Assembly: GCA_026195275.1 (NCBI GenBank)
Contig: JAPHQU010000002.1
Coordinates: 5,964-69,963 of the forward strand
Length of the DNA stretch: 64,000 nt
Direction of reading: 5' to 3'
Source: Minisyncoccota bacterium
GTDB lineage: Bacteria; Patescibacteriota; Minisyncoccia; Phycocordibacterales; JABMNX01
Part shown: positions 3,128-53,943 of the stretch, piece after piece
How the letters are laid out: every line of letters begins with the position of its first letter
Numbering within the stretch: the first letter of the stretch is position 1
Notes under the pieces: model-generated
Databases searched by the model: none
What the model was told of the DNA's origin: nothing
The model's input: only the letters and a program-made list of their open reading frames with translations
Program-made: the position numbers and the translations under genes

Positions 3128-5041
3128 ATGGATGATCTCCAAAAAGTAACCTATATCGGCGCCACAGACGCGCGTGGCAAACGACAGCCTTTCGGTATCA
3201 AAGCGCTTGATCGCGCCAAGCACATGTATGTGATCGGCAAGACCGGTATGGGCAAGTCGACCTTGCTTGAGAATATGGCGATCCAGGACATCCAACATGG
3301 GAATGGCTTGGGCTTCATTGACCCACACGGCTCGACCGCTGAGAAACTCCTTGACTACGTGCCCGAGAATCGCATCAAGGACGTGATCTACTTCGCGCCG
3401 TTTGATATGGATTACCCGATCGCCTTTAACGTCATGGAGGATGTTGGCTACGACAAGCGACACCTCGTTGTCTCGGGACTCATGTCGACCTTTAAGAAGA
3501 TCTGGGTTGATGCGTGGTCGGCGCGTATGGAATACATTCTTACCAACGTGCTCCTTGCGCTCCTTGAGTATCCTGATTCGACACTCCTTGATGTGAATAA
3601 GATGCTCACCAACAAAGCCTTCCGCAAGAAAGTGGTTGAGAATATAACCGACCCCATCGTAAAGGATTTCTGGACGGTTGAGTTCGCAGGCTATACCGAC
3701 CGGTACACCCAAGAGGCAACCCCGGCAATTCAGAATAAGATCGGGCAATTTACCAGCAATCCGCTCATCCGCAACATCGTTGGGCAGCCAAAGTCGAGTT
3801 TTGATATGCGTGAAATCTTGGACTCCAAGAAGATATTCATTGCAAACCTCTCCAAAGGGCGCATGGGGGAGACTAACGCCGCACTTCTTGGAAGTATGCT
3901 TACCACCAAGATCTATCTCTCAGCCATGAGCCGCGCCGACGAGCCAGCTTCAGTTCAAGCGAAGCTCCCGCCTTTTTATTTCTATGTGGATGAGTTCCAA
4001 TCAATCGCGAACGAGTCGTTCGCCGACATTCTCTCTGAGGCCAGGAAGTACAAGCTCGCGCTCACAATCGCACACCAGTACGTCGAGCAGATGGAGGAGA
4101 ATGTGCGCAACGCCGTCTTTGGCAACGTGGGTAGCACGATCGCGTTTCGTGTCGGGCCGTTTGATGCTGAAGTGCTTGAAACCATCTTCCAACCCAAGTT
4201 CATGGCGGAAGACCTGGTCGGGCTCGGCTTTGCACAGATCTATCTCACACTTATGATCGATGGGGTTGGGTCAGCCCCTTTTTCCGCAACCACCCTGCCG
4301 CCAATTGAAGAGCCGGAGATTACCTTTAAGGATGAGGCTATCAAAACATCGCGCAGTGCATATGGTCGGTCGCGCGCCGAGGTTGAGCAAGTTATCTCTG
4401 ACCGCAACAAGGAGGAGCTACCTGAGCCGCCGATGGGTGGCATGAAGAAGAAAGGAGGACAAGGAACTCCACAGAAAAACAGTACTCAACCAAAAGGGCC
4501 GATAGTCCACAGCACAAGCGGAGCACGGAAGGAGAAGACAACTATCCCACTTGCTGCGCTTAAAATGCATCAAAAACCGAATGACAAAGGTCCGAGTCCC
4601 GAACAACGATCAGCACTCAAGGAGGCCCTAATGTCGGCTCAAAAAAAGGGAATCACGGGTGCACCCTCTGCTCCAAAGGAGCCTAAGTCACAAGAGAATC
4701 ATTCACAACCGCAGCGAAGAGGCGCTCCTGAGGGGGCAGTTTTACACACTATGGAACGCGATTCACAACAGCCGGAACCAGCTTCAGAAAAAAAGGAACA
4801 AAGACCTACTCCACCTGAAATAAAGAGAGGACAATCTTCAGCACCCCAGAAGGAAGAGCAAAAGGCGGTTCAACATAAAGAAACCGCCGCACAGAAACCG
4901 CCGCAAGGACCTCCCCAAAAAGAGACACCAGAAGAGGTCTCGACACAAACTCTTTCTCCCGAGCAGAAGATTCAAGCAGAAGGCTCGCCCGGAGAGGTGC
5001 CACTTGATGTGCTCGAAGATATATTAAAGGACGACAAATAA
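3128..5041 (+). CDS. soluble FtsK/HerA-superfamily ATPase of the TraD/TraG/VirD4 'type IV secretion DNA-binding domain' type, with ~200-aa disordered K/E/P/Q-rich C-terminal tail
   Basis: Walker A VIGKTGMGKSTLL, Walker B FYFYVDEFQ, LTIAHQY motif; no N-terminal TM helices; low-complexity tail from ~aa 430 ending DVLEDILKDDK. Confidence 0.65.
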   Translation: MDDLQKVTYIGATDARGKRQPFGIKALDRAKHMYVIGKTGMGKSTLLENMAIQDIQHGNGLGFIDPHGSTAEKLLDYVPENRIKDVIYFAPFDMDYPIAFNVMEDVGYDKRHLVVSGLMSTFKKIWVDAWSARMEYILTNVLLALLEYPDSTLLDVNKMLTNKAFRKKVVENITDPIVKDFWTVEFAGYTDRYTQEATPAIQNKIGQFTSNPLIRNIVGQPKSSFDMREILDSKKIFIANLSKGRMGETNAALLGSMLTTKIYLSAMSRADEPASVQAKLPPFYFYVDEFQSIANESFADILSEARKYKLALTIAHQYVEQMEENVRNAVFGNVGSTIAFRVGPFDAEVLETIFQPKFMAEDLVGLGFAQIYLTLMIDGVGSAPFSATTLPPIEEPEITFKDEAIKTSRSAYGRSRAEVEQVISDRNKEELPEPPMGGMKKKGGQGTPQKNSTQPKGPIVHSTSGARKEKTTIPLAALKMHQKPNDKGPSPEQRSALKEALMSAQKKGITGAPSAPKEPKSQENHSQPQRRGAPEGAVLHTMERDSQQPEPASEKKEQRPTPPEIKRGQSSAPQKEEQKAVQHKETAAQKPPQGPPQKETPEEVSTQTLSPEQKIQAEGSPGEVPLDVLEDILKDDK

Positions 5042-5043
5042 AT

Positions 5044-6468
5044 GTGACACAGCGATACGTCAGAGGAATACTCCTAATATTGTTTTTTTGGAGTCTTCCT
5101 GTGGGTACGCATGCATCGGTGGTGTTCTCTGAGGTCATGTATGATCTTGAAGGGTCCGATGAAAAGAGAGAATGGGTTGAGATATTTAATACTGGAGTTG
5201 TAGCAGTTGATCTAGCCGAGTGGCGTTTTTTTGACGGGTCAAACCATATCTTAAACGAGCCACCCAAGAACGGCAGCTCCGGGTCGCTGATACTTGCTCC
5301 TGGCGAATACATGATACTCGCAAGTGACGCGGGCACTTTTTTGTCGGAGTATCAGGTGTCTGTGTCGGTGATTGATACGGTCATGAGTCTTGGTCAGAAG
5401 AATGATCGAGAGTATACAATTCAACTAATTGATGGCGACGGGGTGGTTGTTGATAGCATGACGTATACGACCGACCAAGGAAGTGAGGGGAACTCGCTCT
5501 CTTATGAAGGTTCTTCTTGGAAGGCGGGTTTTCCAAACCCCGGAGAGGGGGACCTTGCAGCAGATGACGCTTCTTCTGCTGAAGACAATCAGGAGACCAC
5601 TTCAGGGTCGGAGAACCTCAGGGACTTCCCAACAGAACCGCAGATAACTGCCTTCGCGGGCGATAATCGAGTGGTAACCGTTGGTGCTGATGCTGAGTTT
5701 AAAGGAACAGCGGCCGGTCTTCTGGGTGAGCCACTTGCGGGTGCACGCTATTTGTGGAACCTGGGCGACGGGAGCACAAGAGAAGGAGAGTCGGTTCTCT
5801 ATCATTACCAGTACCCCGGAGAATACATTGTCGTGCTCAACGTCTCCTCAGGGGAGTTCAGCGCGACAGATCACATTGTTGTCTCAGCGCTTCCTGCGCT
5901 CGTCTATATCACTGAGGCGACACCTGCGTATGTTGCGCTTACCAATAAGAGTGACCGCACGCTTGATCTCTCATGGTGGATCCTTAAATCAGGAAGTGAC
6001 ACATTTATGCTTCCCGAATACACGAGCATACTGCCTGGGCACACATTGAGGTTTGCCGCGTCAGTCACTGGATTGCGTCCACAGGGCGCCTCGGATACTG
6101 AGCTACAGTACCCAAACGGGCGCGCGGTAACCTTAGATGAATCAGTCGTCTCAGAGAACACCCAGGCATATGGTCGGGTGGGTGCACTGGAGGCAGAGAC
6201 TGTGCGCTCGGGCCGCTCGATTGTCGGCATGACCGTCTCACCGGGAGCTGAACCGGCAGTGAGGGAGACGGTCGAGGTTGTCCAAAGTGACGCCAGAGAA
6301 CCAAAGACACAAGAGCGTGAGGTGCTCACCGCTTCTGTGAGGAGCACTTCTGGGAAAACTAGTTCGTTTTGGTATATTCTCGCCTTGCTTGGCGTTATCG
6401 CGTTCGGTATTTTAAGCACACTCTTTGTCAGGAGGGCATCACAAGACGAAATTACCATACTAGAGTAG
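5044..6468 (+). CDS. secreted, C-terminally membrane-anchored LTD-PKD-LTD protein (lamin-tail-domain surface protein)
   Basis: Signal peptide MTQRYVRGILLILFFWSLPVGTHA; LTD motif VVFSEVMYDLEGSDEKREWVEIFNTGVVAVDLAEWRFFDG; PKD-like ARYLWNLGDGSTREGESVLYHYQYPGEYIVVLNV; second LTD-like segment; C-terminal TM helix; GTG start within TAAATGTG junction with upstream gene. Confidence 0.6.
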   Translation: MTQRYVRGILLILFFWSLPVGTHASVVFSEVMYDLEGSDEKREWVEIFNTGVVAVDLAEWRFFDGSNHILNEPPKNGSSGSLILAPGEYMILASDAGTFLSEYQVSVSVIDTVMSLGQKNDREYTIQLIDGDGVVVDSMTYTTDQGSEGNSLSYEGSSWKAGFPNPGEGDLAADDASSAEDNQETTSGSENLRDFPTEPQITAFAGDNRVVTVGADAEFKGTAAGLLGEPLAGARYLWNLGDGSTREGESVLYHYQYPGEYIVVLNVSSGEFSATDHIVVSALPALVYITEATPAYVALTNKSDRTLDLSWWILKSGSDTFMLPEYTSILPGHTLRFAASVTGLRPQGASDTELQYPNGRAVTLDESVVSENTQAYGRVGALEAETVRSGRSIVGMTVSPGAEPAVRETVEVVQSDAREPKTQEREVLTASVRSTSGKTSSFWYILALLGVIAFGILSTLFVRRASQDEITILE

Positions 6469-9845: not shown

Positions 9846-10882
9846 TGAAACTCTTAATTTGTACTCAGAAGATTGATAGGAACGACCCCATACTTGGGTT
9901 CTTTCATCGTTGGGTCAAAGAGTTTGCAAAGCATTCTGGGCAAGTGACGGTCATCTGTCTTGAGAAAGGCGAGTACGATCTTCCACAAAACGTTCGCGTG
10001 CTCTCTCTTGGCAAAGAAGAGGGAAAGGGGCGCCTCACATACCTCTCGCGCTTCTACCGCTACATCTGGCACGAGCGCACAAACTACGACGCGATCTTCG
10101 TGCATATGAATCAGGAATACGTTTTGCTCGGCTGGTTACCGTGGAGGCTTTTGGGTAAAAGGATATTTATGTGGAGAAACCACGCCAAGGGGAGTTGGCT
10201 TACTCGGCTTGCTGTTCTCTTATCCGACAAAGTATTTTGTACCTCACCACAGTCATTCACAGCGAATTTTAAAAAGACAGAGCTCATGTCTGTGGGTGTC
10301 GACACAGATTTCTTCAAACCCGACTCATCAGTTCACAAAAGACCGCACTCAATCCTTTTCTTGGGGCGTATAGCACCGGTTAAACGCGTCGACATGTTCA
10401 TTGAAGCCCTACGAATACTTAAAGATAAAGGGATTGATTTTACAGCGACCATAGCAGGAAATTCATTACCACGGGACGCAGAATACGAAACAATGATTCG
10501 CAATAAAGTTCTTACGCACGGTCTCTCGTCCCAAGTAGTGTTCACGGGTTCTGCGTCGCGCACTCAAGCTCGAGATCTCTATCGAGAGCACGAGCTGTAT
10601 GTGAACCTTACTCCGTCGGGTAGCTTGGACAAGACCATTTTTGAAGCTCTTGCCTCTGGCCTCAAGGTGGTCATCTCAAACAATTTTTTTGAAGGAAAAT
10701 TGCCGAAAAGATGGGTTATCACCGATGATTCCGACGCCCATGTTATAGCAGCCACCCTTGAAGATGTTCTTAGTGAGGGTTCAGAGATAGTAAATGATAT
10801 TGCATCATTCACTAAGAAACACAGTCTCAAGAGTCTAATGGATGTATTGGTGACAGCCATGAATGCATCAAGCGCGAAATAA
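9845..10882 (+). CDS. glycosyltransferase family 4
   Basis: MKLLICTQKIDRNDPILGFFHRWVKEF start at TAATG overlap; ORF track start 9566 is an in-frame TTG extension. Confidence 0.7.
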   Translation: MKLLICTQKIDRNDPILGFFHRWVKEFAKHSGQVTVICLEKGEYDLPQNVRVLSLGKEEGKGRLTYLSRFYRYIWHERTNYDAIFVHMNQEYVLLGWLPWRLLGKRIFMWRNHAKGSWLTRLAVLLSDKVFCTSPQSFTANFKKTELMSVGVDTDFFKPDSSVHKRPHSILFLGRIAPVKRVDMFIEALRILKDKGIDFTATIAGNSLPRDAEYETMIRNKVLTHGLSSQVVFTGSASRTQARDLYREHELYVNLTPSGSLDKTIFEALASGLKVVISNNFFEGKLPKRWVITDDSDAHVIAATLEDVLSEGSEIVNDIASFTKKHSLKSLMDVLVTAMNASSAK

Positions 10883-16578: not shown

Positions 16579-17723
16579 AATTAAAATTGAAAACATTATT
16601 TCTTTTGTTTTTGTGCCTATGCCGATATGTGGTTTTCGGCAAAGCACAAAAGAAGCAGAAGACTTTTAAAAAGATCGCGATATTCCAAGGAGCAAAGTTG
16701 GGGGATATGGTGTGCACCACGCCAATGTTTAGAGCTGTTAAAGAAAAATATCCACAATCTCAACTTGTTGTTATCGGTGACGGTGTGAACAAGCGTCTTC
16801 TAGAGCACAATCCTGATGTAGACAGTTATCGTGTGTACAAGGAAGAGGATATTTTCTCGACCATTAAAGAAATAAAGAAAGAAGGTGTGGATTTTGGCTG
16901 CATCACCGGACCCAGCTTCCTGAATCTTGCTGTTCTTTATCTGGCTGGCATCCCACTGATTGTTGCTCCTGTAATCAAGAGTGGTTGGAGTCCTTGGGAG
17001 ACCATGAGTTATAAGATTCTTCGGAGGTTTGTTGAGACCCAACCGCATCACATGGGACAGTATGCCCCCAGAGAATATTTACGTTTGCTTGAGACCATCC
17101 ACATTTTCACAGATGATACAACAAAACACTTAGTGTTTTCTTCACAAGCTCAGCAAGAGACCAGAGCTTTGCTTGAGCAATACGCCGGTCGATTATTGAT
17201 TGGCATTTCACCTTCAGCGGGCAATAAGATAAAAGAGTGGCCAACCGAGCGTTTTGCTGAGGTTGCTAATTACATCGCGTCTCGATACGATGCAGTTGTG
17301 GTGATTATTGGTGGTCCCGGTGACGGCGAATATGCCAAGAGGATGAAAGCGGGTCTTGATAGAGATGTCGAATATGTTGATACAACGGGGATACTCTCCA
17401 TTGATGAATTAAAGGCATTGATAAGCAAACTCAATCTTTTTATAAGCGTAGATACTGGACCCATCTATATTGCAGAGGCATTCGGTGTTCCTACGATTGA
17501 TATAGTCGGACCAGTGGATGAAAATGAACAGCCACCTGTTGGTGAGAGACACAAGATAGTAGTGTTTGGACGAGATAAGCCAGAACTACATATTATGAAC
17601 TCCAGGATATATAATGAAAAGAAGGCTCGGATGCAAGTCGAGTCAATTAATGTCAAAGATGTTATTTATGAGATTGCAAAATTGGCTGTATTCTTGAAAG
17701 AAAATGAAACCAAAAAATCATAA
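16575..17723 (+). CDS. glycosyltransferase family 9 (heptosyltransferase-like)
   Basis: IAIFQGAKLGDMVCTTPMFRAVKEKYP N-term and C-term ISVDTGPIYIAEAFGVPTIDIVGP typical of GT9. Confidence 0.7.
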   Translation: MKLKLKTLFLLFLCLCRYVVFGKAQKKQKTFKKIAIFQGAKLGDMVCTTPMFRAVKEKYPQSQLVVIGDGVNKRLLEHNPDVDSYRVYKEEDIFSTIKEIKKEGVDFGCITGPSFLNLAVLYLAGIPLIVAPVIKSGWSPWETMSYKILRRFVETQPHHMGQYAPREYLRLLETIHIFTDDTTKHLVFSSQAQQETRALLEQYAGRLLIGISPSAGNKIKEWPTERFAEVANYIASRYDAVVVIIGGPGDGEYAKRMKAGLDRDVEYVDTTGILSIDELKALISKLNLFISVDTGPIYIAEAFGVPTIDIVGPVDENEQPPVGERHKIVVFGRDKPELHIMNSRIYNEKKARMQVESINVKDVIYEIAKLAVFLKENETKKS

Positions 17724-27432: not shown

Positions 27433-27675
27433 ATGCCAGCACGAAAACGAAAAGCAGCTAAGAAGACAACACGTCGCAAGGTTGCTAAGAAAGCAGCTAA
27501 GAAGACGACGCGTCGCAAGACAACTCGTCGTAAGGTTGCTAAGAAAGCAGCTAAGAAGACGACGCGTCGCAAGACAACTCGTCGTAAGGTTGCTAAGAAA
27601 GCAGCTAAGAAGACAACTCGTCGTAAGGTTGCTAAGAAAGCAGCAAAAAAGACTACCCGTCGACGAAAGCGATAG
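27433..27675 (+). CDS. histone H1-like / Hc1-like highly basic repeat protein (KKAAKKTTRRK repeats), likely nucleoid-associated DNA-binding protein
   Basis: 80-aa ORF that is ~50% Lys/Arg with tandem repeats; underlying DNA is an imperfect tandem repeat; followed by strong terminator. Confidence 0.6.
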   Translation: MPARKRKAAKKTTRRKVAKKAAKKTTRRKTTRRKVAKKAAKKTTRRKTTRRKVAKKAAKKTTRRKVAKKAAKKTTRRRKR

Positions 27676-49442: not shown

Positions 49443-49490
49443 AAACGCCAACCTCTGGTTGGCGTTTAATACGGCTCTACAGAGCCGTAT
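49443..49490. terminator. two adjacent hairpins between convergent cfa and pfkB genes (bidirectional terminator region)
   Basis: aaacgccaacc-tctg-ggttggcgttt and atacggctct-ac-agagccgtat read directly. Confidence 0.6.
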
Positions 49491-50491
49491 TAGAGCTTAG
49501 TGACCACATAATCAACCGGTGCATTGGCGAGGTGGCGCTCAATCTCATCTCGTGAGAGGAGCCCCGCCTGCGCGCCGATCTGCTGGACGACTGACATGGA
49601 GTTGATTGGACCGCGCGCGAGCGCCTCAGGGAGCGACATCCCCGCAGCAAGCATCGCAGTGACCGTTGAAGAGAATGAGTCACCAGCGCCGGTGCGGTCA
49701 ACCGGCGGGGCCGGGTCAGGGTACATTGGCATCTTCCAGCTCTCCGTGCCATCAGAAGCAAACGCTCCTTTAGGACCGTCAGTGACAACGGCGATCTTTG
49801 GGCCAAGTGTGCGAATACCTTCGAGGAGCTCCTCTATATCTTCAGAATCCGTCTGAAGTATCTTTTGTGCTTCTTGTTTGTTGCAGAAGAAGAGCGCAGA
49901 TACTTCGTAGATGTCCTTGAGTGTATCGGCACCGAGCTTAATCTGGAAAGTGCCTGGCTGGAAGGCGAGATTCACTTCGGGGTGGTCTTTCACATACTTT
50001 GCGATCTCATGATGGTAGGGGATAGAGTTTTCACCGAGCGAGGAGAGGTAGATCCATCGTGGTGGAGTCTTGAACTCAGGGAGTTTGTATTGATACTCAT
50101 GGTGCTTTACCAGGATCGTACGTTCTGCATCGTACAGAAGAACATAGTGGTAGTTTGATTCCACACCTTTCTCGACGGTTATAAATTCATCGCTCACCCC
50201 TTCTTTTTTGAGTTGTGCGAGCATCTCCTCGCCATTTCTGTCATCTCCGAGAGAGGTGATGAGAGCAGAGCGGAGACCGAGTCTATGCGCGCTGACGGCT
50301 GCATTTGGGGAGTTTCCAACGGCGGGCACTATTGTTGCTGATTCGTACGGGATCTTTGAACCAAAGTCCATACAGAGCTGACACGCATCTTCATCTATTG
50401 TGCAATTCACGCGCGCGTCCTCTAGGCGTATAAAGGCGTCGGTGGTGATGTCTCCAAGACCGACGAAGTCGAGTTGCTCAGTATTTTCCAT
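49490..50491 (-). CDS. PfkB-family carbohydrate kinase (ribokinase-like)
   Basis: N-term GLGDITTD, C-term DRTGAGDSF (anion hole/ATP motif); start taken at Met7 of track ORF. Confidence 0.75.
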   Translation of the reverse strand: MENTEQLDFVGLGDITTDAFIRLEDARVNCTIDEDACQLCMDFGSKIPYESATIVPAVGNSPNAAVSAHRLGLRSALITSLGDDRNGEEMLAQLKKEGVSDEFITVEKGVESNYHYVLLYDAERTILVKHHEYQYKLPEFKTPPRWIYLSSLGENSIPYHHEIAKYVKDHPEVNLAFQPGTFQIKLGADTLKDIYEVSALFFCNKQEAQKILQTDSEDIEELLEGIRTLGPKIAVVTDGPKGAFASDGTESWKMPMYPDPAPPVDRTGAGDSFSSTVTAMLAAGMSLPEALARGPINSMSVVQQIGAQAGLLSRDEIERHLANAPVDYVVTKL

Positions 50492-50542
50492 ATGCACACA
50501 TAGTATCATACGCGACTTCCCCTGTGTGGTACCATGGTGTGT

Positions 50543-51406
50543 ATGAAAACACTACGAGAGTGCATAGCAGACGCTGAGACGAAGAAGGTCGCTCTCGGGC
50601 ATTTCAACGTTTCTGACACCGAACAACTCCACGCAATCGTCAGGGCAGCGCGTGAGCTCGATGTGCCGGTCATTATTGGGACATCTGAGGGCGAGCGTGA
50701 TTTTGTTGGGGTGCGCCAGGCGGCAGTACTTGTTAAGAGTATGCGGGAAGAATTTGACCACCCTATTTTTCTCAATGCTGACCACACCTACTCATTTGAA
50801 CGATGTAAGGAAGCGATCGACGCGGGGTATGACGCGGTCATATTTGACGGGGTGAAGCTCTCTCTTGAGGAGAATATTGCTGAGACCAGGAGGGTGGTCG
50901 AATACGCGCGAAGCGTGAACCCTGAGATAATAGTCGAGGGTGAGATCGGTTATATCGGCACTTCGTCAAAGATGCTCGACGAGCTCCCCGAGGGAGTTGA
51001 TCCGGAGGGCGCGGTGACAACAGAAGAAGAGATCGGGCGATACGTTGCAGAGACAGGGGTTGATCTTGTGGCACCGGCTGTTGGCAATCTTCACGGTATG
51101 CTCAAGAGCGGGAAAAATCCGGAACTCAACATCGAGCAGATCACAAAGCTGCACGAAGCGGGTGGTGTACCGTTGGTGCTTCATGGTGGCTCAGGTATCT
51201 CGGACGAAGACTTTGTCGCGGCAATCGAAGCGGGTATCTCGACCGTACACATCAACACTGAGATCCGCGTTGCATATCGAAAGGGAATCGAGGCGGGCCT
51301 TAAAGAAAATCCTGGTGAGATCGCGCCATATCGCTTTATGAAGCAGGGTGTTGAAGGTGTTCGAGAGGTGGTTGAGCAACGCCTCAAACTCTTTAACCGA
51401 ATGTAG
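50543..51406 (+). CDS. fba: class II fructose-bisphosphate aldolase (FbaA/tagatose-bisphosphate aldolase family)
   Basis: ALGHFNVSD, LNADHT, VLHGGSGISDE zinc/ substrate motifs. Confidence 0.85.
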   Translation: MKTLRECIADAETKKVALGHFNVSDTEQLHAIVRAARELDVPVIIGTSEGERDFVGVRQAAVLVKSMREEFDHPIFLNADHTYSFERCKEAIDAGYDAVIFDGVKLSLEENIAETRRVVEYARSVNPEIIVEGEIGYIGTSSKMLDELPEGVDPEGAVTTEEEIGRYVAETGVDLVAPAVGNLHGMLKSGKNPELNIEQITKLHEAGGVPLVLHGGSGISDEDFVAAIEAGISTVHINTEIRVAYRKGIEAGLKENPGEIAPYRFMKQGVEGVREVVEQRLKLFNRM

Positions 51407-51493
51407 GTTCCTTCCGCAACAATGCAGTGTTTCCAATAACACAGCATCACCACTTCACTTTCCACCCGCACTTTCCACCCTCATTCCCTCATT

Positions 51494-51675
51494 CATACGA
51501 TATATCGTATGACCCCACCTTCACTCCACCCCCACTCCCTCATTCATACGATATATCGTATGACCCCATCTTCACTCCACCCCCACTTCTTCATTCATAC
51601 GATATATCGTATGAGAATTGTTATACACATTACGCATTGATTGCCCACTGAAGATTTCATACGATATATCGTATA
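51494..51675. repeat. array of four copies (~54-bp spacing) of perfect 18-bp palindrome CATACGATATATCGTATG with C-rich spacers, immediately upstream of trpR-like gene
   Basis: copies at 51494-51511, 51545-51562, 51596-51613, 51658-51675 (last 17/18); spacers are near-identical (not CRISPR-like). Confidence 0.85.
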
Positions 51676-51683
51676 CTTTGTGT

Positions 51684-52085
51684 ATGCCGCATGTGTCAAA
51701 GAAAGACATCGACGAGCGCATCACACAAAAGCTCGATCAACATTTTACACACCTGCTTCGCAATAGCGGGTCACGTACTCGTGTCGATATATTCAACGAA
51801 CTCTTAACGGAGACCGAACGCACCATGCTTGCAAAGCGTCTCGGGATGCTCTTGTTGATACGAAAAGGGTATTCCTCATACAAAATATCGCAGGTGCTTG
51901 GCGTGAGCCCTTCAACAGCAGAGCGATTCTCACTTTTAGAAGAAATTGGCAAGTATAAGCACACATCCAATTGGATGTGGAAGCAGAGTAGAGAAGGGTC
52001 TCTTGAAGCGCTTTTTGAATCTCTCGTCAATCTCACGTTTACTGGACGCACACGCTCGTTCAAGAAGTCTGTTGATGAATACTGA
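51684..52085 (+). CDS. TrpR-like YerC/YecD-family HTH transcriptional regulator
   Basis: LLTETERTMLAKRLGMLLLIRKGYSSYKISQVLGVSPSTAERFS matches the family pattern; track ORF 51618 start lies in repeats. Confidence 0.6.
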   Translation: MPHVSKKDIDERITQKLDQHFTHLLRNSGSRTRVDIFNELLTETERTMLAKRLGMLLLIRKGYSSYKISQVLGVSPSTAERFSLLEEIGKYKHTSNWMWKQSREGSLEALFESLVNLTFTGRTRSFKKSVDEY

Positions 52086-52156
52086 CTTCAGTTTATTCAC
52101 AGAAGAGACCAGTGCTCTACAACATAGAAGCATAAAGCATCACAGAGCTCGTTTTT

Positions 52157-52182
52157 CATTCATACGATATATCGTATGAATG
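52157..52182. repeat. 26-bp perfect palindrome CATTCATACGATATATCGTATGAATG (fifth local copy) downstream of trpR-like gene
   Basis: read directly. Confidence 0.85.
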
Positions 52183-52266
52183 GTATGTGATTCACAAGTG
52201 TGCTGTGGGGTTGGTTATTGTATGAATGGTATGTGATTTACAAGTGTGCCGTATGGTTGGTAAGAT
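52175..52266. repeat. tandem direct repeat, 2 x 46 bp (tatgaatggtatgtgatt[c/t]acaagtgtgc...)
   Basis: two adjacent near-identical units just upstream of the dehydrogenase gene. Confidence 0.8.
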
Positions 52267-52280
52267 AAATAATAATAACA

Positions 52281-53252
52281 ATGACAATGAAGGTATTTGT
52301 AACAAGAAGGATTCCTGAAGCGGGTATTACACTTCTCAGAGAGGCAGGGTATGAGGTTTTGGTAAGCGAGAAAGACGGTGTCTTGACCCGTAATGAGCTC
52401 ATTGCAGCGCTCAAGGCAGACGAGTATGACGCAGTGCTTTCGCTCCTCACCGACACGATCGACGCTGAGGTCTTTGATGCAGCACCCGGGGTGAAGATCT
52501 TTGCGAACTACGCGGTTGGCTACAACAACATCGACCTCGACGAGGCAAAAAAACGCGACATTACGGTCACCAACACCCCCGGCGTACTCTCTGACACAGT
52601 TGCCGAGCACACAATCGCACTCATGCTCTCGATCACCTCGCGTATTGCTGAGGGAGACCGGTTCGTGCGTGCCGGCAAGTATGACAGCTGGGCACCAATG
52701 CTGCTCCTCGGGACAGACCTTAAAGGCAAAACGCTTGGTGTTATGGGTGCGGGGCGTATTGGCACGCGCGTTGCACACTTTGCGTCACGCGGACTTGATA
52801 TGAATGTTATCTACTACGATATCAAACGAAATGAAAATATTGAGAAGGAGTATGGTGCGGTATTCAAAGAAACGCCTGAGGAGCTTCTCAAAGAAGCGGA
52901 CGTGGTCACGGTGCATGTGCCCCTTCTTGAGTCGACCGAGCACCTTATAAACAAGGAGCGTCTCGATATGATGAAGCGAAGTGCGTACCTGGTAAACTCC
53001 TCACGCGGACCGGTTATTGATGAGAGTGCGCTCGTTGAGGCACTTAAAGGCGGAGTTATCAAAGGAGCGGCACTTGATGTGTTTGAGAATGAGCCCACGC
53101 TTGCGCCTGGCTTGGCAGAGCTTGAGAATGTGGTCCTCACACCACATATTGCCTCGGCTACCGAGGAGACCCGCGGTGCAATGTCTGAGATGGCTGCGCG
53201 GAGCATTATTGACTTTCTTTCAGGGAAGACCCCGGAGCATATTGTTGTGTAA
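52281..53252 (+). CDS. D-isomer-specific 2-hydroxyacid dehydrogenase (glyoxylate/hydroxypyruvate reductase-like)
   Basis: GVMGAGRIGTRVA NAD motif, catalytic R/E/H arrangement. Confidence 0.8.
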   Translation: MTMKVFVTRRIPEAGITLLREAGYEVLVSEKDGVLTRNELIAALKADEYDAVLSLLTDTIDAEVFDAAPGVKIFANYAVGYNNIDLDEAKKRDITVTNTPGVLSDTVAEHTIALMLSITSRIAEGDRFVRAGKYDSWAPMLLLGTDLKGKTLGVMGAGRIGTRVAHFASRGLDMNVIYYDIKRNENIEKEYGAVFKETPEELLKEADVVTVHVPLLESTEHLINKERLDMMKRSAYLVNSSRGPVIDESALVEALKGGVIKGAALDVFENEPTLAPGLAELENVVLTPHIASATEETRGAMSEMAARSIIDFLSGKTPEHIVV

Positions 53253-53301: not shown

Positions 53302-53943
53302 ATGACAGAGACACTACAAGTCCGAGTGCGAGAGGGGAAGAAAAGCCTCAAAGAACTCCGTGGCGGCAAGGAAATGCCCGCGGTCTTTTATGGTCCCAAG
53401 GAGGAGGCAACACCGATTGCACTTGAGGTGGATGCGTTCAAGAAACTTTGGAAAGAAGCAGGAGAATCAACCGTCATTGAACTGAAAGGTGATGGAATTG
53501 ATAAAGAGGTGCTCATTCAGGACGTTGATTTTCATCCGGTAACTGGTGAGCCACGCCACGCAGATTTTTATGTAATGGAGAAGGGTAAGAAAGTGACAGT
53601 GAAGGTGCCGATCGAGTTCGTTGGTGTTGCACCAGCAGTGAAGGAGCTCGGTGGTATTTTGGTGAAGGTGCTTCATGAGATCGAGATTGAGGTTATGCCA
53701 AAAGACCTTCCGCAGCATATCGAGGTTGATGTTGAGGTACTCAAAGACTTTGAGAGTCATATTCTTGCAAAGGACGTTGCTATACCCGAGAGCGCAACGC
53801 TTATAACCAACGAAGAGGAGGCTGTTGCTCTGGTGAACGAGGCGAAGGAGGAGAAAGAAGAGGAAACTTCCGAGGCATCTATTGAAGATATTGAGGTGGA
53901 GCGGAAAGGAAAGAAAGAAGAGGAAGAAACACCTACTGAATAA
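53302..53943 (+). CDS. rplY: 50S ribosomal protein L25 / general stress protein Ctc
   Basis: L25 N-domain plus Ctc C-domain and acidic tail. Confidence 0.8.
   Translation: MTETLQVRVREGKKSLKELRGGKEMPAVFYGPKEEATPIALEVDAFKKLWKEAGESTVIELKGDGIDKEVLIQDVDFHPVTGEPRHADFYVMEKGKKVTVKVPIEFVGVAPAVKELGGILVKVLHEIEIEVMPKDLPQHIEVDVEVLKDFESHILAKDVAIPESATLITNEEEAVALVNEAKEEKEEETSEASIEDIEVERKGKKEEEETPTE

Follow-up and report, generated by a model that had tools for sequence, protein, structure and literature searches.

A TrpR-family gene bracketed by perfect palindromes in a Minisyncoccota genome: a predicted autoregulatory module of the Candidate Phyla Radiation

In a 64,000-nucleotide stretch of a Minisyncoccota bacterium genome (assembly GCA_026195275.1, contig JAPHQU010000002.1; this whole stretch is called the window below), a gene for a TrpR-like helix-turn-helix protein of 133 amino acids (aa) is preceded by four copies of a short palindrome and followed by a fifth, while a sixth copy lies at the left end of the window. 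The locus raises the question of whether the palindrome is the operator of the protein encoded beside it or a repeat that has become associated with the gene. The organisms concerned, the Candidate Phyla Radiation (CPR) or Patescibacteria, have tiny genomes with very few recognisable regulators, and their gene control is almost unstudied.

Inspection of the window reveals five exact copies of the 18-mer CATACGATATATCGTATG, at 154-171, 51494-51511, 51545-51562, 51596-51613 and 52161-52178. The first-pass annotation had described four perfect copies upstream of the gene; this holds for copies 1-3, and the fourth (51658-51675) carries one mismatch, an A as its last base. Allowing up to three mismatches to the 18-mer, six matches are found against 0.01 expected from shuffled sequences, in agreement with the earlier view that such palindromes are rare by chance. 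Each of copies 1-3 is perfectly symmetric over 20 bp and copy 4 over 16 bp, while the symmetry reaches 26 bp downstream of the gene and 28 bp in the distant copy; the extension to 20-26 bp given earlier is present, with a shorter and a longer case to be added. Five of the six copies cluster around the TrpR-like gene:

149-176, no strand: solo copy, 28-bp perfect palindrome, surrounded by non-coding DNA (at least 390 bp) at the left window end
51474-51614, no strand: 51-bp tandem repeat, 2.8 units, each unit a C-rich spacer plus the 20-bp palindrome TCATACGATATATCGTATGA
51659-51674, no strand: copy 4, the putative proximal operator, with its centre 17.5 nt ahead of the ATG and a right arm that enters the -10-like TATACT at 51672-51677
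51684-52085, plus strand: TrpR-fold helix-turn-helix gene, 133 aa (open reading frame, Pfam PF01371, AlphaFold/Foldseek, PDB profile search, family alignment)
52157-52182, no strand: downstream copy, 26-bp perfect palindrome, starting 72 nt past the stop codon and ending 99 nt before the ATG of a 2-hydroxyacid dehydrogenase gene
52170-52261, no strand: 2 x 46-bp tandem repeat, whose second unit holds a degenerate half-site and a promoter-like TTTACA-18-TAAGAT (52237-52266)

The units of the 51-bp repeat are 94% identical and place the 20-bp palindrome at 51493-51512, 51544-51563 and 51595-51614. The upstream copies are spaced 51, 51 and 62 bp from start to start, rather than at the constant distance of about 54 bp described before, and the neighbouring copies of related loci are 53-132 bp apart without a common helical phase, so that the proposed arrangement on one face of the helix does not hold in relatives. 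A CRISPR array was rejected, as it had been at the first reading, since the spacers are near-identical (94%) and there are just three regular units. On the other side of the gene, the 2 x 46-bp repeat noted earlier is present, with units 89% identical and a start that falls within the downstream palindrome; because it begins there, its second unit carries the degenerate half-site TATTGTATGAATG.

The product of the gene, which runs from the ATG at 51684 to 52085 in the list of open reading frames (ORFs), matches the Pfam family Trp_repressor (PF01371) over residues 16-83 of its 133, with 29.4 bits against a cut-off of 27; precomputed matches to the same family exist for the relatives P0001, P0003, P0005 and P0011-P0013. 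The AlphaFold model is all-helical, with a mean pLDDT (predicted local distance difference test) of 76.6, and is good to about residue 105; the helix-turn-helix corresponds to residues 64-81 (SSYKISQVLGVSPSTAER). Foldseek matches the model best to E. coli TrpR and to the YerC-type PDB structures 3kor, 3g1c and 3frw, and the top 25 matches are all TrpR, 3kor or 3g1c (target-normalised TM-score 0.58-0.69), with weak E-values for these TrpR-fold matches (0.05 or above). A profile search of PDB sequences gives 4e-6 for 3kor and 1.5e-4 for 3g1c. Fold and Pfam score place the protein in the TrpR family, and it is neither TrpR nor HisR/YerC. The YerC/YecD-type assignment of the first-pass annotation does not survive comparison with the NCBIfam models, as the YerC/YecD model (TIGR02531) scores 14 bits against a cut-off of 42.2 and the TrpR equivalog (TIGR01321) 15.1 bits against 67.25. 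The latter score excludes a TrpR ortholog, and orthology with YerC/YecD, that is HisR, is further opposed by the length of 133 aa instead of fewer than 100 and by a different operator.

A profile search of 1.84 billion cluster representatives (clusters at 50% identity) returned 1,138 clusters at E ≤ 1e-10, and the best 150 of these 1,138 are nearly all full length, at 130-140 aa. The identical protein is on record in a Candidatus Pacebacteria metagenome-assembled genome (MAG) as 'helix-turn-helix domain-containing protein'. More than 1,100 clusters and the lack of a specific record name thus delineate a large, nameless, CPR-specific branch of the TrpR family. Relatives in the family alignment are 27-71% identical, and the N-terminus MPH(V/I)S is nearly invariant; it is kept at the protein level while its codons vary. 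No ParB-type N-terminal CTPase domain was found on the 133-aa protein, which returned TrpR and helix-turn-helix matches only, and neither an HUH motif nor a catalytic Tyr is present among the conserved columns of the alignment.

Conservation of the module and covariation of protein and site

A scan of 596 Gb of genome records for the palindromic 16-mer yielded at least 120 loci (L001-L120 being those listed). About 139 matches are expected by chance in 596 Gb, and therefore the raw locus count means little. Judging from record titles, approximately 71 of the 120 listed loci belong to Patescibacteria, a figure that is approximate because several records carry no phylum name; many MAGs contribute more than one locus among the matches listed. 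A TrpR-like homolog adjoins the palindrome in 14 of these listed loci, and 26 further loci were obtained by a protein-based metagenome search and 5 more by look-ups of distant homologs. Counting only loci whose sequence covers the side in question, 34 of 36 have the 10-bp core CGATATATCG no more than 450 bp upstream of the TrpR-like gene and 34 of 38 have it no more than 300 bp downstream; 30 of 36 have it on both sides, and most of the exceptions carry one-mismatch or half copies. In the window the last upstream copy ends 9 nt before the ATG, exactly as reported at first reading; its centre, 17.5 nt before the ATG, is found at the same distance in 19 loci and at 12-22 nt in most others. One to five extra upstream copies are present per related locus. 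Of the sites, 90% are perfect 20-mers, degenerate copies being rare; even very distant lineages share an unchanged core of 10-12 bp, and the central ATATAT is constant. Collectively, the module of gene plus site is kept across hundreds of CPR lineages, and no description of it was found in the searchable literature, where the core sequence occurs in no paper and the CPR is nowhere linked with this TrpR-like family.

The 16-mer also occurs outside this context. On viral contigs it is found 27 times, always singly, with 16-20 bp of symmetry and no TrpR-like gene; these occurrences were treated as background and used as a control. Non-CPR 16-mers were likewise rejected as part of the TrpR-like system, as 11 loci adjoin PadR-family genes instead. 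At these loci (L002, L017, L023, L032, L042, L052, L070, L080, L088, L092 and L099, from Firmicutes, Chloroflexi and one Roseiarcus MAG) the 16-mer ATACGATATATCGTAT, often within ATGT...ACAT, lies beside genes matching PF03551, and looks like an unrelated operator that has converged on the same core.

The anatomy and the conservation described above are complemented by an observed covariation between the protein and its site. In genomes with T at ±8 of the palindrome (CTTACG...CGTAAG), residue 65 at the start of the helix-turn-helix is Leu, Ile or Phe in 6 of 7 cases, and in those with A at ±8 it is one of these in none of 26. The switch at ±8 changes both arms and all local copies, and it has occurred on at least four separate branches; it is readily apparent in a close pair of genomes, one combining Ser65 with CATACG (L100) and the other Leu65 with CTTACG (L112). 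On one branch, Tyr66 becomes Asn together with a change of C to T at ±9. Furthermore, a 39%-identical relative has the recognition helix STSTIKR, compared with SPSTAER, and the core ACCGATATATCGGT. In the hhalign register to E. coli TrpR, residues 65, 66, Thr78 and Arg81 correspond to Gln68, Arg69, Thr81 and Arg84; Gln68 is adjacent to Arg69, and Arg69 of TrpR contacts the base at position 9 of its operator. The DNA-contacting residues of TrpR include Arg69, Thr81 and Arg84, and the family members TrpR and HisR/YerC bind 20-bp palindromes, with HisR (YerC) autoregulated in about half of the genomes (PMC9413887).

The covariation of residue 65 with ±8 is strong indirect evidence, at the level of sequence, that the TrpR-like protein binds the palindrome directly. 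Three observations, namely the bracketing (30 of 36 loci), the constant distance of the proximal copy from the ATG and the covariation, make it very likely that the palindrome is the operator of the adjacent protein and that the gene is autoregulated, as the first-pass annotation had proposed for a dimeric helix-turn-helix regulator. The invariant core and its covariation with the protein fit a regulator-operator pair that is inherited vertically; so predicted, the pair spans much of the CPR, with its more than 1,100 clusters at 50% identity. A specificity rule is predicted, in which Ser, Pro, Thr or Ala at residue 65 goes with A at ±8, and Leu, Ile or Phe with T; this rule is checkable in vitro without culturing the organisms.

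Two further observations concern the variant sites. Both CATACG and CTTACG forms occur in one genome in L013, L066, L091, L106 and L112, in the last case only 39 bp apart (L112:1430 and 1469), and such genomes may encode two paralogous regulators of different specificity. In L174, a 48-bp perfect palindrome (9957-10004, GCATAGTCGGGTAATATACCGATATATCGGTATATTACCCGACTATGC) takes in the ATG of the 39%-identical homolog with the variant core and the STSTIKR helix; no second copy with the variant core is present in the 20 kb of this locus, where one unrelated perfect 16-bp palindrome lies at 17369-17384.

Promoter geometry, gene neighbourhood and proposed mechanism

The right arm of the proximal copy enters the hexamer TATACT (51672-51677), which is followed by 6 nt and then by the ATG at 51684, and no Shine-Dalgarno sequence precedes the gene. 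A TATAnT hexamer 7-9 nt before the start codon is found in 7 of the 55 window genes, and a Shine-Dalgarno-like motif in only 10 of the 46 larger ones, so that leaderless mRNAs may be common in this genome. From the order TATACT-6 nt-ATG, the missing Shine-Dalgarno sequence and the same geometry at other genes, we therefore infer a leaderless mRNA for the regulator. Examples of these start-codon contexts in the window are at 53302, 54012, 6499 and 30928.

On this basis, the reading we favour, to which a probability of roughly two in three is assigned, is that of a dimeric TrpR-family repressor that represses its own gene at a probably leaderless promoter through a 20-bp palindromic operator. 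The 133-aa protein would be a dimeric member of a large Patescibacteria-specific TrpR subfamily, with TCATACGATATATCGTATGA as its operator, and each helix-turn-helix would read one arm of the palindrome. The conserved SPST..R recognition helix would then read the invariant ACGAT, with ±8 and ±9 read by residues 65 and 66; MPHxSKK, the invariant arm at the N-terminus, may extend to the A/T centre. Since the proximal copy overlaps the -10 element and the mRNA start, its occupancy is proposed to silence the gene of the regulator itself. Local occupancy would be raised by the further upstream copies and by the one past the stop codon, and, more speculatively, the additional C-terminal helices may bridge copies into a loop over the gene; the downstream copy may also control or insulate the next gene. 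Because the palindrome is strong and perfect, the site is proposed to act as a DNA-structure element as well, in which hairpin-templated copying would symmetrise the flanks, and recombination between copies would invert or relocate the cassette and seed copies elsewhere in the genome.

The genes around the cassette offer a hint as to what such a repressor might sense. The order in the window is transketolase halves, cyclopropane-fatty-acid synthase, pfkB kinase (minus strand), class II aldolase, the cassette, the dehydrogenase and ribosomal protein L25; the three recurrent neighbours, assigned from synteny, are:

49490-50509, minus strand: ribokinase-like pfkB-family sugar kinase
50534-51406, plus strand: class II fructose/ketose-bisphosphate aldolase
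52281-53252, plus strand: glyoxylate-reductase-like D-2-hydroxyacid dehydrogenase, which the downstream copy may control locally

Kinase, aldolase and dehydrogenase recur beside the cassette in close and distant relatives; one relative instead has transketolase, ribulose-phosphate epimerase and RpiB next to it. In others the neighbouring genes are unrelated, so the link to carbon genes is inconstant; no trp or his genes occur in the cassette neighbourhood. The recurrent sugar-metabolism neighbours suggest a link to central carbon metabolism, and the sugar-phosphate genes suggest a carbon metabolite as ligand, whereas tryptophan or histidine as ligand is supported by no evidence here. Recurrence of pfkB kinase, aldolase, transketolase, pentose-phosphate and 2-hydroxyacid dehydrogenase genes thus points to control of carbon metabolism.

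Two observations fall outside these subjects. Just upstream of secA, a plus-strand gene at 27433-27675 of the window encodes an 80-aa K/R-rich repeat protein, (KKTTRRKVAKKAA)n, over a 54-bp tandem repeat; the protein looks like a histone H1. In L003, a minus-strand leucyl-tRNA synthetase ORF (4050-6299) has a NUDIX match (residues 160-278) between its editing and catalytic parts, and this record has a masked N run, so that the match is possibly an artefact.

Solo copies, rearrangements and rival explanations

Fifty-two solo copies at CPR loci could be classified: 18 are intragenic, 20 lie between tandem, 11 between convergent and 3 between divergent genes, against a background of 55 convergent and 61 divergent gaps, with 85% of bases coding. 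Copies within coding regions had been named at first reading as the mark of a generic repeat, and they are found here in 18 of 52 cases; yet the binding hypothesis stays alive because of the covariation. On long contigs there is about one exact copy per 30-180 kb, and MAGs have roughly 3-10 exact copies on the recovered contigs. Several solo copies lie directly 3' of tRNA genes, and in-gene copies are found in MiaA, TruB, TsaD and a reverse transcriptase. Reverse-transcriptase genes (RVT_1) are seen twice near the palindrome, once beside the cassette (L123, 1942-2913) and once with the palindrome inside (L047, 193-1335).

The distant copy of the window was earlier taken for a regulon member upstream of rsmI. 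It stands in a non-coding context, with a 40-aa ORF 237 bp and rsmI about 420 bp further on, and the arrangement is not repeated in related loci; this assignment is not supported. The region 1-560 around it has at least 390 bp without an ORF, in which AAAGTCGAAG(A/C)CGT...CACTCAC occurs twice (about 97-127 and 257-287); the 40-aa ORF (391-513) has a strong AGGAGG and is followed by a G+C-rich hairpin with a T-run at about 520-556. Rfam gives no match in 1-560, its sole match in the window is a tRNA, and five loci with long gaps gave tRNAs only; the palindrome is no known RNA family.

Symmetry continues beyond the 20-mer for a mean of 4.16 bp per arm, whereas shuffling the partner flanks gives 1.47 bp, and is thus site-specific; such extension is not seen at the viral-contig 16-mers (16-20 bp). 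In L130 the left arm mirrors the conserved 5' end of the TrpR-like gene. The copy at L043:5626 carries a symmetric double change in its centre (CATACGGTATACCGTATG; also given as GGTATACC) with both arms altered, which fits copying from arm to arm. Template switching on hairpins makes the flanks of a palindrome symmetric, and such mutagenesis at quasipalindromes has reportedly been described by Ripley in 1982 and by Lovett and co-workers.

The cassette itself differs in orientation and place between relatives within one neighbourhood: it is inverted with respect to the window in L121, L122, L130 and L131, lies between kinase and aldolase in L026, L086 and L101, and occupies other slots in L123 and L140-144. 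Comparison with orthologs lacking the palindrome reveals in-frame insertions of 5-22 aa containing it in TsaD, TatD, HolB, a methyltransferase and UvrC; in TruB it lies at different positions in two genomes, and in MiaA at two positions and in three reading frames. Between two closely related contigs (L134:3188 and L135:1273) homology ends at the palindrome centre, L134 keeping the left half only, and this is a rearrangement breakpoint at the dyad. Assembly artefacts, such as fold-back or chimeric joins, were rejected: the palindromes are internal to contigs with genes on both sides, the inverted repeats measure 20-38 bp, which is judged shorter than usual read and k-mer lengths, and the inverted arrangement appears in four independent assemblies.

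In our reading of these data, the strong palindrome forms hairpins during replication, template switching symmetrises its flanks, and copies recombine with one another. Carried further, the bracketed gene could be a minimal recombining cassette that flips or hops between copies, perhaps switching the neighbour that it faces, and seeds copies, some of them in frame within essential genes, with a protein that protects, pairs or resolves hairpin or cruciform DNA. We regard this as unlikely; if true, it would make the module a palindromic genome element of a new, protein-dependent kind that is peculiar to the CPR. Palindromes of up to 58 bp, in-gene copies and inversions suggest in any case that CPR genomes tolerate long palindromes and are reshaped by them.

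A related explanation, which we consider quite unlikely, holds that the palindrome is a self-propagating or recombinogenic repeat akin to repetitive extragenic palindromes (REPs, or their REPIN doublets) or to a minimal miniature inverted-repeat transposable element (MITE), and that the helix-turn-helix protein is its dedicated binding factor. The bracketed gene would then be the 'master' cassette, comparable to the REP-associated tyrosine transposase (RAYT) between REPs or to InsA on the ends of IS1, with the solo copies as its offspring. The bracketing in 30 of 36 loci, the inversions and changes of slot within one syntenic neighbourhood, the breakpoint at the palindrome centre, the excess of solo copies between convergent over divergent genes (11 vs 3) and weak Pfam matches to the transposase-type HTH_23 and HTH_38 are all consistent with it, as are the in-frame insertions and the shifting sites in TruB and MiaA, although loop indels are common anyway between orthologs of 30-58% identity. 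Against it stand the TrpR fold without catalytic domain or HUH/Tyr motif, the lack of any transposase or recombinase recurring near the sites, the low copy number (6 in 64 kb, 5 of them at one locus), a shared unit of only 20 bp with differing flanks and no target-site duplication seen, and a phylum-wide invariant core of 10-12 bp that covaries with the protein. The REP/MITE-like alternative raised at first reading therefore captured the behaviour of the solo copies, while the features that define REP/RAYT systems are absent.

Rather more doubtful is a role mainly at gene ends, where the palindromes would serve as bidirectional hairpin terminators, protein roadblocks or insulators and the TrpR-like protein as a global architectural or termination factor instead of a gene-specific repressor. 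Many solo copies do lie just past stop codons, between convergent genes or 3' of tRNA genes (L072, L012, L120, L005, L050); a copy follows the regulator gene in 34 of 38 loci; the hairpins are predicted to be stable, at -14 to -16 kcal/mol in the window and -50 kcal/mol in L048; and palindrome length is greatest between convergent genes (31 bp) and least inside genes (23.5 bp). However, T-tracts are not enriched after the palindromes, convergent sites having 2.25 of 8 nt, equal to background. A terminator scan, no better than chance overall, accepted one of the six window copies (51594-51615), and A/T runs inside the arms could still serve. Against this role, 18 copies lie deep inside genes, the proximal copy keeps a fixed distance before the ATG, and ordinary terminators are neither conserved in sequence across a phylum nor covary with a helix-turn-helix residue.

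That the palindromes are centromere-like or chromosome-organising sites of the parS/matS kind, bound by a small helix-turn-helix protein, is hardly credible: a phylum-wide palindrome with a handful of copies per genome, some of them intragenic, and positions that follow gene neighbourhoods and not promoters (4 genomes have a site in the MreB-HolB region, 4 have one in the LeuRS region and 3 have one downstream of gatB) would suit it, but there is neither a ParB-type CTPase nor a ParA partner, nor any sign that the sites cluster at an origin, five of the six copies in the window lie around the gene of the protein itself, and the fold is that of a metabolite-sensing repressor family.

Several points weigh against the autorepressor reading as well. 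About two thirds of the solo copies lie outside promoter positions, and the longest perfect symmetry, 58 bp, is far above what a TrpR-type dimer needs. The genome-wide site search with inspection of flanking genes, suggested at the outset as a check, brought out no coherent gene set or regulon; a classical regulon for the TrpR-like protein is not supported, and in L123 no site is present at the aldolase and dehydrogenase genes. For the covariation, the Fisher value of 2e-5 between residue 65 and ±8 is uncorrected for phylogeny. The -10 and leaderless assignments are drawn from consensus resemblance alone; the promoter scan, whose results in the window are no better than chance, did not flag TATACT, so the leaderless step is a weak one. 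The C-terminal residues 114-133 have a pLDDT below 50, and binding, dimerisation, repression, looping and a ligand are what we infer from the module.

Comparison with known systems

Quasipalindrome template switching explains both the site-specific, perfectly symmetric flanks and symmetric double substitutions such as GGTATACC in L043; it is a mutational process, not a functional system, and its link to these organisms is by analogy. The REP + RAYT system (REPtron) shares with this module a gene flanked by copies of a short palindromic repeat, and dispersed, recombinogenic solo copies that are mostly extragenic and often at gene ends. In contrast to RAYT, the protein here has a TrpR fold without HUH/Tyr transposase motifs; copies are tens of times fewer and some lie inside coding regions, and the core is phylum-wide where REPs are species-specific. 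From a MITE the module differs in that the shared unit is the 20-bp palindrome itself, with unlike flanks and no target-site duplication.

HisR (YerC/YecD; PDB 3kor, 3g1c, 3frw), known from Firmicutes and other phyla, provides the closest solved relatives by sequence profile, and it too has a 20-bp palindromic operator and is autoregulated in about half of its occurrences (PMC9413887). It differs in its length of fewer than 100 aa, compared with 133, in its unrelated operator consensus cacTTTAnnnnnnTAAAgtg (TTTA-N6-TAAA), and in its control of his genes, none of which are seen at the TrpR-like loci.

E. coli TrpR, with its trp, aroH and trpR operators, has the same fold (Foldseek probability 1.0; target-normalised TM-score 0.64-0.69), an 18-20-bp palindromic operator lying over the promoter of an autoregulated gene, as is predicted here, and the aligned contact positions Arg69, Thr81 and Arg84 (here Y66, T78 and R81); tandem binding is also known for it, and PDB 1trr is among the Foldseek matches. 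Identity is only about 22%, and the present protein has some 30 additional C-terminal residues and the conserved MPHxS N-terminus. The operators are unrelated (TATCGTATGA here vs AACTAGTACA for TrpR, per half-site); the sites here are perfect, multiple and on both sides of the gene, and no trp genes are nearby. The extra C-terminal helices, which neither HisR nor TrpR possesses, are speculative candidates for pairing dimers. What is new relative to these systems is a gene bracketed on both sides by its predicted operators and a CPR-wide subfamily with an invariant operator core of its own, together with the predicted single-residue specificity rule and the structure-driven behaviour of the palindrome.

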